64,000 nucleotides of DNA from IMG/VR virus record IMGVR_UViG_2706794662_000007, one strand, 5' to 3'. The notes beneath the pieces were generated by a model. That model saw nothing but the letters and a program-made list of their open reading frames with translations, ran no database searches and had not been told where the DNA came from. The position numbers and the translations under genes were made by a program. Positions 9,339-10,986 of the stretch are shown in pieces (position 1 is the first letter of the stretch; each line of letters starts with the position of its first letter). The DNA is from a virus (Duplodnaviria > Heunggongvirae > Uroviricota > Caudoviricetes).

Positions 9339-9611
9339 TTAACCCGCAGTGCNNNNNNNNNNNNNNNNNNNNNNNNNNNNNNNNNNNNNNNNNNNNNNNN
9401 NNNNNNNNNNNNNNNNNNNNNNNNNNNNNNNNNNNNNNNNNNNNNNNNNNNNNNNNNNNNNNNNNNNNNNNNNNNNNNNNNNNNNNNNNNNNNNNNNNNN
9501 NNNNNNNNNNNNNNNNNNNNNNNNNNNNNNNNNNNNNNNNNNNNNNNNNNNNNNNNNNNNNNNNNNNNNNNNNNNNNNNNNNNNNNNNNNNNNNNNNNNN
9601 NNAGTTGCCAT
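9339..9611 (-). CDS. hypothetical protein almost fully masked by N-run
   Basis: ATG at 9611 (MAT...) behind conserved junction GGAGAGTGATATG; body is N. Confidence 0.25.
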   Translation of the reverse strand: MATXXXXXXXXXXXXXXXXXXXXXXXXXXXXXXXXXXXXXXXXXXXXXXXXXXXXXXXXXXXXXXXXXXXXXXXXXXXXXXXXXXXXTAG

Positions 9612-9612
9612 A

Positions 9613-10134
9613 TCACTCTCCTTTGATGCGAATGCCTGCTGCAATGCTGTTTATGATGCTGTCAGTGCATGGAGTAGAAAGCTGGGCATCTCCAGCAATT
9701 TTCATGACCTCAACATCCGCATATCGAATACCGAGGTGTATCAGACCGGCTATACCTGACTTAAGTCGAACATTTTCCATAAACAGATCTTTTTCCCGCT
9801 GTTTAGCGGCTTCCAACTCCATCGACAATTTTTCCAACTGCTCTTTATGCTTCTTGTATTCCTGATACGCGTGCCAAGACTGACCTTTGCGCACACTATC
9901 AGTGATATCAGCAACCTGCTCCGGTGTTAGCGTGGTCAGTGGCTGTGCTGGAAAAATCATCACTTTCCCGGCATCCCAATCAAAACCCGCCTGAATTGAC
10001 TGAACCTCAACTGATGGTGTTGAACCGATGCGACCAGGCGAATGAACAACGATCGTTACATCCATATCGCGACGATGGCTGTGGTTGTTGGACAAAATAC
10101 GATTCACCAACTCAGAAAATTTGGAAAATTTCAT
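9613..10134 (-). CDS. hypothetical phage protein
   Basis: [10 protein letters not shown] start; C-terminus AAGIRIKGE shared with gene 10456..10986 because of a repeated junction sequence. Confidence 0.5.
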
Positions 10135-10454
10135 GCTGATCCCTCTTTCTCTCCCCGGATAATTCTGTTGCACACATCCACACACTCGTCGCAGATGAAA
10201 ACGGCGTCCCCAGCAATTAACTTTTTGACGGCGTACTGGGATTTGTTGCAGAAGCTGCAACAAAGTGTTCGCCTGACTGATAAGGATGGAGCGCCAGATG
10301 TCAGCCGCTCCATATCGTTCTTGCGACGCAATATCACACGGCTGAACTCAACCAGTTTCTCCGGGGATATCTCCTCCTCCGTAGCAAGCGCCTCTAATCG
10401 TTCGAGTATGTGGAAGGCTTTTTTCTGGGTAATTGCAGAATGCGATGTGGTCAT
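10131..10454 (-). CDS. small protein with ClpX-type N-terminal C4 zinc-binding domain (no ATPase domain)
   Basis: [36 protein letters not shown] aligns with the ClpX zinc-binding domain as recalled; 107 aa. Confidence 0.6.
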
Positions 10455-10455
10455 C

Positions 10456-10986
10456 TCACTCTCCTTTGATGCGAATGCCAGCGGCGCGGGAATCATTCCA
10501 TCGCTTTACTTCTTCACGAATTACGTCAATGCATTCTTTCGAATCCATTAGGTAATCTTCATCAAAAAGACGTTCCTGTTCGTTTTCTATCGCAACAATG
10601 ATTGCTTCAACTAACTTTTGTGCCTGAGAATCACTTTCTAACTCTGCTATGCGCTTACTTCCATCCGAGATAACGCCCTCGTAATACTCACGCTGCTCGT
10701 TGAGTTTTGATTTTGCCAACTCCAGTTGTTTTGTTAGTTCCGCAATACGGCAAACATCGTTGATACGCGTTTCCTCTAATGCGTTGATCTCATCCAGTAG
10801 TGCCAGCACGGTTTCTGGTCCGGCCAGAAATTTGAAGGCGTTGAGGGCATCAATATCAACACCGCTATCTTTAAGTTCCTGTTCACTTAACAAGTCATCA
10901 TCAGCTGGCAACATTAACAGGCGTTCCATTGCTGGAATTGCACGTTCCGCCACCTCACGCAGTGCCTGGTAATTAATTTCGCTCAC
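10456..10986 (-). CDS. Ea22-like prophage protein (coiled-coil)
   Basis: GTG start with AGGAGG SD; acidic coiled-coil protein resembling lambdoid Ead/Ea22 family. Confidence 0.45.

Follow-up and report, generated by a model that had tools for sequence, protein, structure and literature searches.

Two accessory genes in the 64,000-nucleotide (nt) stretch of Caudoviricetes DNA considered here (IMG/VR record IMGVR_UViG_2706794662_000007; hereafter, the window) close with the same block of DNA, and on each occasion another gene opens directly beyond it. This raises the question of why one short sequence should end one gene and introduce the next at two separate junctions. We consider it most probable, at roughly three chances in four, that the block is a conserved boundary, or linker, of early accessory gene arrays, which would serve translation in place and act as a homology patch for the in-register exchange of genes.

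Anatomy of the linker

All genes around the linkers lie on the minus strand. Read in gene sense, the exact repeat is 24 base pairs (bp) long, GGCATTCGCATCAAAGGAGAGTGA, and occupies positions 9613-9636 (junction J1) and 10456-10479 (junction J2) of the minus strand. The initial annotation had reported a 23-bp repeat; an exact search with this 23-mer (CACTCTCCTTTGATGCGAATGCC) finds both copies where they had been placed (9614-9636 and 10457-10479) and no others, while allowing up to three mismatches adds no further copy in the window, and 100 shuffles contain none; by chance, no copy would be expected. Both copies also have the adjoining T, with which the minus-strand stop codon ends, and this extends the identity to 24 bp. 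The codons GGC ATT CGC ATC AAA GGA GAG TGA are read as G-I-R-I-K-G-E-stop, and both upstream open reading frames (ORFs) terminate in AAGIRIKGE; these last nine residues are all that the two upstream proteins have in common.

At J1, the 24-mer forms the last seven codons (GIRIKGE) and the stop codon of a gene for a 173-amino-acid (aa) protein (9613..10134, minus strand) and would provide the Shine-Dalgarno (SD) sequence for the following gene. At J2, the identical 24-mer ends an Ead/Ea22-like gene (10456..10986, minus strand) and would likewise provide the SD for a gene encoding a ClpX C4 zinc-finger protein of 107 aa (10131..10454, minus strand). The next gene starts 1 nt past the stop codon (TGAtATG and TGAgATG, with the ATG at 9611-9609 and 10454-10452); thus, the repeat does span the stop codon and the ribosome-binding site (RBS), as had been described, but not the start codon, which lies 1 nt beyond it. 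A third junction (J3) carries a core-only copy, AAAGGAGAGTGA, at 8942..8953 on the minus strand, where it ends a 128-aa ORF (..LQGKGE-stop), and a DUF551 gene starts 1 nt after it. This corresponds to a shorter version of the repeat, ATATCACTCTCCTTTT, which had been placed at 8940 and is present one position away, at 8939-8954; it has the core AAAGGAGAGTGA and tATG in common with the full linkers. The 64-kb window contains the exact 12-nt core at each of these three junctions and nowhere else, the chance expectation for matches with up to one mismatch being 0.36. At each of the three junctions, the SD motif AAGGAG, which lies inside the core, stands 6 nt ahead of the ATG, and the depositors of Stx phage P27 annotate AAGGAGA inside the linker as the RBS of the next gene. 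At the sequence level, these junctions look like translationally coupled ones, with an SD 5-9 nt before the start codon and a stop codon within a few nt of it.

To see the linker in a sample unbiased for it, we anchored a scan on the start of a downstream 63-aa gene (MNGQISIV..), obtaining 89 contigs. The exact 24-mer, encoding GIRIKGE, precedes this gene in 56 of the 89, and single-change variants of it, with various tails, in 4; a second family, AACATTGGCATCAAAGGAGAGTGA (NIGIKGE), accounts for 25, a third, CATTTGCGCACTAAAGGAGAGTGA (HLRTKGE), for 3, and a diverged sequence for the remaining one. One of the four single-change variants is synonymous, two are non-synonymous and one is a 1-nt deletion causing a frameshift. 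All three families have the AAAGGAGAGTGA core or a one-base variant of it. The constant part is AAAGGAGAGTGA(G/T)ATG, comprising SD, stop, spacing and start, with a few copies off by one base, and the 5' half of the linker is family-specific and alters the peptide. Because the core is constant while the 5' half differs between families, the element appears to consist of two parts, a functionally constrained core and a family-specific extension common by descent.

These families bear on whether the peptide rather than the DNA is what matters. The ..AGIRIKGE tail could be a portable C-terminal signal, such as a protease-adaptor or ClpX-binding tag, and we take IRIK to be loosely similar to the LRVVK tail of SspB. 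In keeping with such a role, phage lambda retains the tail with no coupled downstream gene, a ClpX zinc-finger gene adjoins J2, and the +GE end of Ea22 proteins was called unexplained by Dydecka et al. (PMC7093339). However, the alternative linkers encode NIGIKGE and HLRTKGE and so change all residues but KGE, which is the SD; the single-change variants listed above give no sign of purifying selection, small as their numbers are; and the ClpX-finger gene is only one of 22 downstream classes among the matches listed. The variants thus appear to argue against selection on the GIRI peptide, within the limits of such small counts, and we retain a ClpX-binding tail or another peptide signal only as a very improbable explanation.

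Alternative genes around a constant block

The initial annotation had read the repeats as footprints of modular exchange of accessory genes, a view that would sit badly with repeats absent from gene junctions in related genomes or with paralogy of the two upstream proteins along their whole length. The repeat does recur at junctions elsewhere. An IMG/VR scan with the exact 24-mer found it in at least 120 contigs with 119 usable junctions, and a 31-nt query containing the linker matches 325 of 50,697 GenBank phage records, among them lambda, many Stx phages, Salmonella phages, the P1-like phage P7 and others. We grouped the 60 nt before and the 60 nt after the linker into classes at 80% identity. 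Among the matches listed, the 119 junctions comprise 13 upstream and 22 downstream classes in 54 distinct combinations, with 71 four-gamete squares in which U1D1, U1D2, U2D1 and U2D2 are all present. The start codon lies exactly 1 nt past the stop codon in 119 of 122 junctions (again among the matches listed), the lambda-type junction being the exception to this spacing. That the linker joins alternative modules in varied combinations is also seen in individual phages: in lambda, ea22 ends with the 24-mer; in P7, it lies between the Ead-like upf88.3 and upf89.0; and in P27, the sequence type found downstream of J3 in the window (ATGACCACTATAACCGATAAGAA) comes after the full 24-mer, making three different upstream/downstream pairs. 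Viral contig L021 likewise pairs the 24-mer with the MTTITDKKQYP gene that follows J3.

Conservation is sharply bounded. In 53 non-redundant junction types, the 24 nt of the linker carry 2 bits of information, a value that the search pattern imposes, and the 9 nt upstream of it (CGCGCCGCT, 'RAA') carry about 1 bit; the content drops to about 0.2 bits within roughly 10 nt upstream and just past the start codon downstream. The linker is thus a short conserved block with unrelated sequence on both sides. Junction types that differ on both sides have an exact common block with a median of 28 bp and a range of 24-46 bp.

The nature of the partners is relevant to a further explanation, in which all linker-bearing upstream genes are descendants of Ea22 that inherited the tail, the downstream variation being due to insertion and deletion. 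Upstream partners are mostly Ea22 mosaics with alternative C-terminal modules, and most carry an Ea22 N-terminus or coiled coil; because most of them are mosaic Ea22-family proteins, the upstream diversity is partly diversity within that family. In the window, the 176-aa protein upstream of J2 passes the Ead_Ea22 gathering score (PF13935, E = 7.6e-24, 85 bits versus a cut-off of 27). The 173-aa protein upstream of J1 is a chimera: residues 1-114 match phrog_6026, and over its C-terminal ~55 aa it is >95% identical to a module that also ends Ea22-type mosaic ORFs in other phages, as paralogy would lead one to expect, with weaker similarity extending further upstream. Its N-terminal part is joined to another linker-bearing C-terminal module in two contigs (L050 and L110). 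A Pfam search gives no family for this protein, so it does not match the Ead_Ea22 profile, and BLASTP aligns the two window proteins over the tail only, which rules out paralogy of the whole proteins, the point on which the earlier view could have foundered. In addition, the 60 nt directly upstream of the linker sort into 13 classes that are less than 80% alike (among the matches listed), the identity is at the DNA level with a sharp edge, and two partners without an Ead_Ea22 match also end in GIRIKGE, namely an HNH endonuclease (HNH_3, E = 3e-18; 1 of the 119 junctions among the matches listed) and a 163-aa protein with a weak, sub-threshold match to Mom. Ea22 paralogy is therefore partly true for many upstream partners and fails for the window pair, the HNH endonuclease and the 163-aa protein; as a general explanation, it is decidedly unlikely. 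Downstream partners include dATP/dGTP-pyrophosphohydrolase-DUF551 proteins, the ClpX-finger protein and several small proteins without a significant Pfam match.

Close relatives place the breakpoints. The window derives from a phage-plasmid of E. coli that we take to be SSU5-like, and we compared it with three other SSU5-like plasmids or phages (L200-L202) and three viral contigs (L005, L053 and L097). All six match the window at 98-99.8% identity across the ClpX-finger and 173-aa genes and are unrelated to it thereafter. The alignments end at reference positions 3378, 3388 or 3402, and the J1 linker occupies 3373-3396; near-identity therefore stops inside the linker or at its edge. In L201 and L202, the junction reads GGCATT-TTAACCAAAGAGGGG.. 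(AAGILTKEGSAR), a diverged relative of the linker, beyond which lies a different gene. L200 has another Ea22 C-terminal module, and its homology to the window resumes 9 nt upstream of J2. Comparing junctions with related elements, as the initial annotation had suggested, thus does reveal alternative genes beyond the same linkers, and modular exchange of accessory genes is supported both by these breakpoints and by the combinations of upstream and downstream classes.

As a separate observation, in L200 (pOkiPb01698_2) the homologue of the 173-aa gene reads through into the next ORF at 3565-4278 (237 aa, ..AAGIFTKEGVSTMRTLEV..), a 1-nt difference in its diverged linker relative to L201 and L202 fusing the two genes.

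The breakpoints also weigh on an explanation by function only. The linker could be a conserved translation-coupling signal, with mosaicism produced by random illegitimate recombination and selection for intact genes (the Hendrix model), which would make it a survivor rather than a cause of exchange. A core of 12 nt (SD, stop and spacing) that is common to the three families and J3 is what functional constraint would leave. However, the SD accounts for about 8-12 nt and not for the identity of GGCATTCGCATC, including four third-codon positions; the SD alone is therefore insufficient to explain the other 12 nt of the linker. Moreover, both flanks vary around the same 24-mer, and near-identical relatives have their breakpoints within 30 nt of one another at the linker, where random joints would not recur with the sequence kept the same. 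We consider function alone an unlikely explanation.

A scan of species-representative genomes gave 38 matches, with credible hosts only in Escherichia spp., Shimwellia and Phytobacter. A wide host range was rejected, since most of the matches are small, often low-coverage, or ~48.4-48.5 kb contigs in unrelated species. The lambda ea22 linker occurs in contigs assigned to Streptomyces, Bacillus, Streptococcus, Shewanella, Pseudomonas and others (L203-L240), which are best read as contamination of public assemblies with phage lambda DNA.

Proposed role and known systems

We propose that the linker operates in the arrays of early accessory genes carried by enterobacterial temperate phages (in lambdoid phages, the exo-xis/'ea' region), and that it does so in two ways. 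(i) In place, its 3' half, AAAGGAGAGTGA, would supply the SD AAGGAG 6 nt before the start codon and a stop codon 1 nt before it, the geometry expected for translational coupling, and the upstream protein would have to end in K-G-E because its codons double as the SD of the next gene. (ii) Between genomes, the whole 24-46 bp identity block would act as a minimal homology patch at which Red-beta/RecT/Erf-type annealases or RecA could cross over, each crossover rejoining any upstream with any downstream module in register and restoring ORF end, RBS and start codon. Repeated exchange would then spread and homogenise the linker. The homology-patch reading is preferred because both flanks can repeatedly reassort and leave the block unchanged only if breakpoints fall within it or at its edge. 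For efficient pairing, the published minimum is 23-27 bp with Red-beta and 31-34 bp with RecA (PMC3945230), and phage annealases drive mosaic formation on short or diverged homology (PMC2327257, PMC3945230).

Several points weigh against this proposal. At 24 bp, the block is barely long enough for homologous pairing to be efficient. Use of the SD, and exchange that is driven by homology rather than random and then filtered, are both read from the sequence, and dependence on homologous recombination is argued from block length (24-46 bp) relative to the published minimal pairing segments. Lambda keeps the 24-mer without a gene starting after it, ea8.5 beginning 192 nt away, and this copy is either a relic or serves the protein. 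Conserved islands also exist inside genes, so linkers at gene boundaries are not the sole exchange points. Finally, the IMG/VR contigs (at least 120) were picked by the exact 24-mer and are redundant samples of E. coli prophages, and counts among them are not independent events.

The type of feature is already known. Boundary or linker sequences of lambdoid mosaicism go back to the modular theory of Susskind and Botstein (1978) and were treated for phage HK620 by Clark et al. (2001), both as cited in PMC3029335. There, as here, short conserved DNA lies at module edges, is flanked by alternative modules, belongs to the early 'metabolic' part of lambdoid genomes and is a proposed focus of homologous recombination; at the sequence level, the three features that define a boundary sequence are present in the linker. 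The present instance of this mosaicism is well defined. Its anatomy is resolved to the codon (last seven codons, stop and SD), and it is also found outside lambdoid phages, in the P1-like P7 and the SSU5-like phage-plasmid. A literature search for the peptide IRIKGE, in which Clark et al. (2001) was not included, found no paper.

At the protein level, the same feature has been reported as the +GE tripeptide of Ea22: all Ea22 proteins end in K/R-G-E, with the significance stated as unknown (Dydecka et al. 2020, PMC7093339). In contrast to that report, we read AAA GGA GAG as the SD of the following gene, which would account for the K/R-G-E end, and find the tail on non-Ea22 proteins too. Rad52-like phage recombinases (Martinsohn 2008, PMC2327257; De Paepe 2014, PMC3945230) could supply the mechanism, since Red-beta/RecT use short or diverged homology, although those studies used homologies of hundreds of bp and the blocks here are isolated and ~28 bp long. 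Like translationally coupled overlapping junctions, the linker places an SD within the upstream ORF, 6 nt ahead of the ATG, and a stop codon 1 nt ahead of the start. Ordinary coupled junctions each belong to one gene pair, whereas the 24-mer is a portable identical unit found over many pairs.

Integron attC cassettes offer another likeness, in that a short repeated element at cassette borders lets accessory genes reassort, and the repeat could accordingly be imagined as the site of a dedicated enzyme, like attC or the target of a homing endonuclease. Direct repeats do flank an 843-bp two-gene segment, the same linker pair is found in L053 and L097, and one upstream partner is an HNH endonuclease. 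Unlike attC, however, no linker copy has an inverted repeat or hairpin, and each junction is predicted to fold differently, with ordinary z-scores of -1.5, -1.8 and 0.0; on these grounds, a hairpin or attC-like site was rejected. Nor was a consistently linked recombinase or dedicated integrase seen, the HNH gene being present in 1 of the 119 junctions among the matches listed, and an Rfam search of positions 7000-13000 gave no match at E ≤ 1, lending no support to a known RNA element. We regard a site-specific cassette as extremely improbable, and exchange would instead proceed by general or phage homologous recombination.

A more tentative possibility, plausible to us without being likely, is that the 24-mer and its sister linkers form a universal adaptor across families, that is, a translation-ready joint kept homogeneous by exchange and used for plug-in cassettes in lambdoid, P1-like and SSU5-like elements. 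If so, it would be a homology-driven counterpart of integron cassettes and would explain the +GE end on Ea22 and on unrelated proteins. Current views are not overturned, and the interest is modest. The linker nevertheless adds a codon-level case to the debate on whether mosaicism arises by homology at conserved linkers or by random joints filtered by selection, in the form of a sharply bounded 24-46 bp island, close to the minimal pairing length of phage annealases, with many reassorted partners. It also provides a simple way to read the Ea22 '+GE' end, published as unexplained, and the same joint in lambdoid phages and two kinds of phage-plasmid may mark a concrete route of gene flow between them.

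The phage-plasmid and other conserved sequences

Over positions 8300-11300, the window matches 'Escherichia phage CMS-2020a' (CP054387.1) at 100% identity and is nearly identical to plasmid p09EL50 of E. coli O104:H4 2009EL-2050 (NC_018651.1, 109 kb), which is annotated as a large phage-plasmid with RepB, DnaE, NrdAB, ThyA, its own RecA, DNA ligase, tRNAs, metG and dfrA51. Host-like genes on the phage-plasmid are metG, apbC, the trimethoprim-resistant dfrA51, nrdAB, thyA, dnaE, recA and several tRNAs, and its accessory block has short segments in common with lambdoid phages. The window contains seven N-masked runs of ~250-330 nt (4263-4591, 6780-7032, 9353-9602, 13174-13428, 32187-32449, 42918-43175 and 61635-61884). 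Most of the gene that follows J1 falls within the run at 9353-9602 and was read from the unmasked sequence L001; this run is 9 nt longer than the matching stretch of NC_018651.1 (250 versus 241 nt).

This gene (9339..9611, minus strand; unmasked copy at L001 10040-10303) encodes an 87-aa protein beginning MATLTKKERAWL.. that belongs to phrog_1714. The Ead/Ea22-like gene upstream of J2 encodes 176 aa from a GTG start, compared with 157 aa in RefSeq. Upstream of J3, the 128-aa ORF (MTTITKERLL.. ..GWNACRAAMLQGKGE; 8942..9328, minus strand) is intact (L001 9643-10029), while RefSeq annotates no more than a portion (L001 9895-10029), and this as a partial pseudogene. In some other phages (downstream classes D6 and D14), the motif at its C-terminus, GWNACRAAML(Q/H)GK.., runs in frame into a DUF551 domain, and because of this continuation the window ORF has the appearance of a mosaic protein that is split or has not yet become fused. 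The gene downstream of J3 (8365..8940, minus strand) encodes a DUF551 protein of 191 aa (MTTITDKKQYP..).

A second junction motif, encoding MTTIT, marks the downstream side of junctions. Its general form is ATGACCACTAT(A/T)ACC, and the window has two minus-strand copies of this repeat family (D1), ATGACCACTATAACC at 8926..8940 and its sister ATGACCACTATTACC at 9314-9328. In other phages, the 63-aa gene is followed by this motif and then by one of several different downstream sequences. We had intended the 3' end of this gene as a linker-free control and rejected it as such, since it carries a conserved junction of its own, ..ATTAAGGTGAAATAG-(C)TATGACCACTATTACCAAAGA, in which the conserved part lies in the first ~7 codons of the next gene (MTTITKE) and is followed by seven sequence classes. 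Because even this control junction is conserved, with seven downstream classes, conserved junctions are a general phenomenon that extends beyond the 24-mer.

Islands are also found inside genes, at L001 gene-sense positions 3771-3806 and 4398-4446 (approximately 9194-9229 and 8554-8602 of the window). They are ≥85% identical in 90-127 viral contigs, and the surrounding gene sequence is found in far fewer (~4-70). By our reading, one corresponds to the ..ARIALASLEA.. motif; the other lies near the start of the DUF551 domain. Both are counterparts, within genes, of the junction linker.

Lastly, a 64-nt intergenic repeat with 86% identity between its copies (6678-6741 and 11814-11877) contains the 25-nt hairpin TTAAGGCCACAACTAGTGGCCTTAA, of which the window has no third copy at up to three mismatches. 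The two copies bracket the lambdoid-type accessory gene block, and the repeat may serve the phage-plasmid as a terminator, promoter or operator present in two copies.

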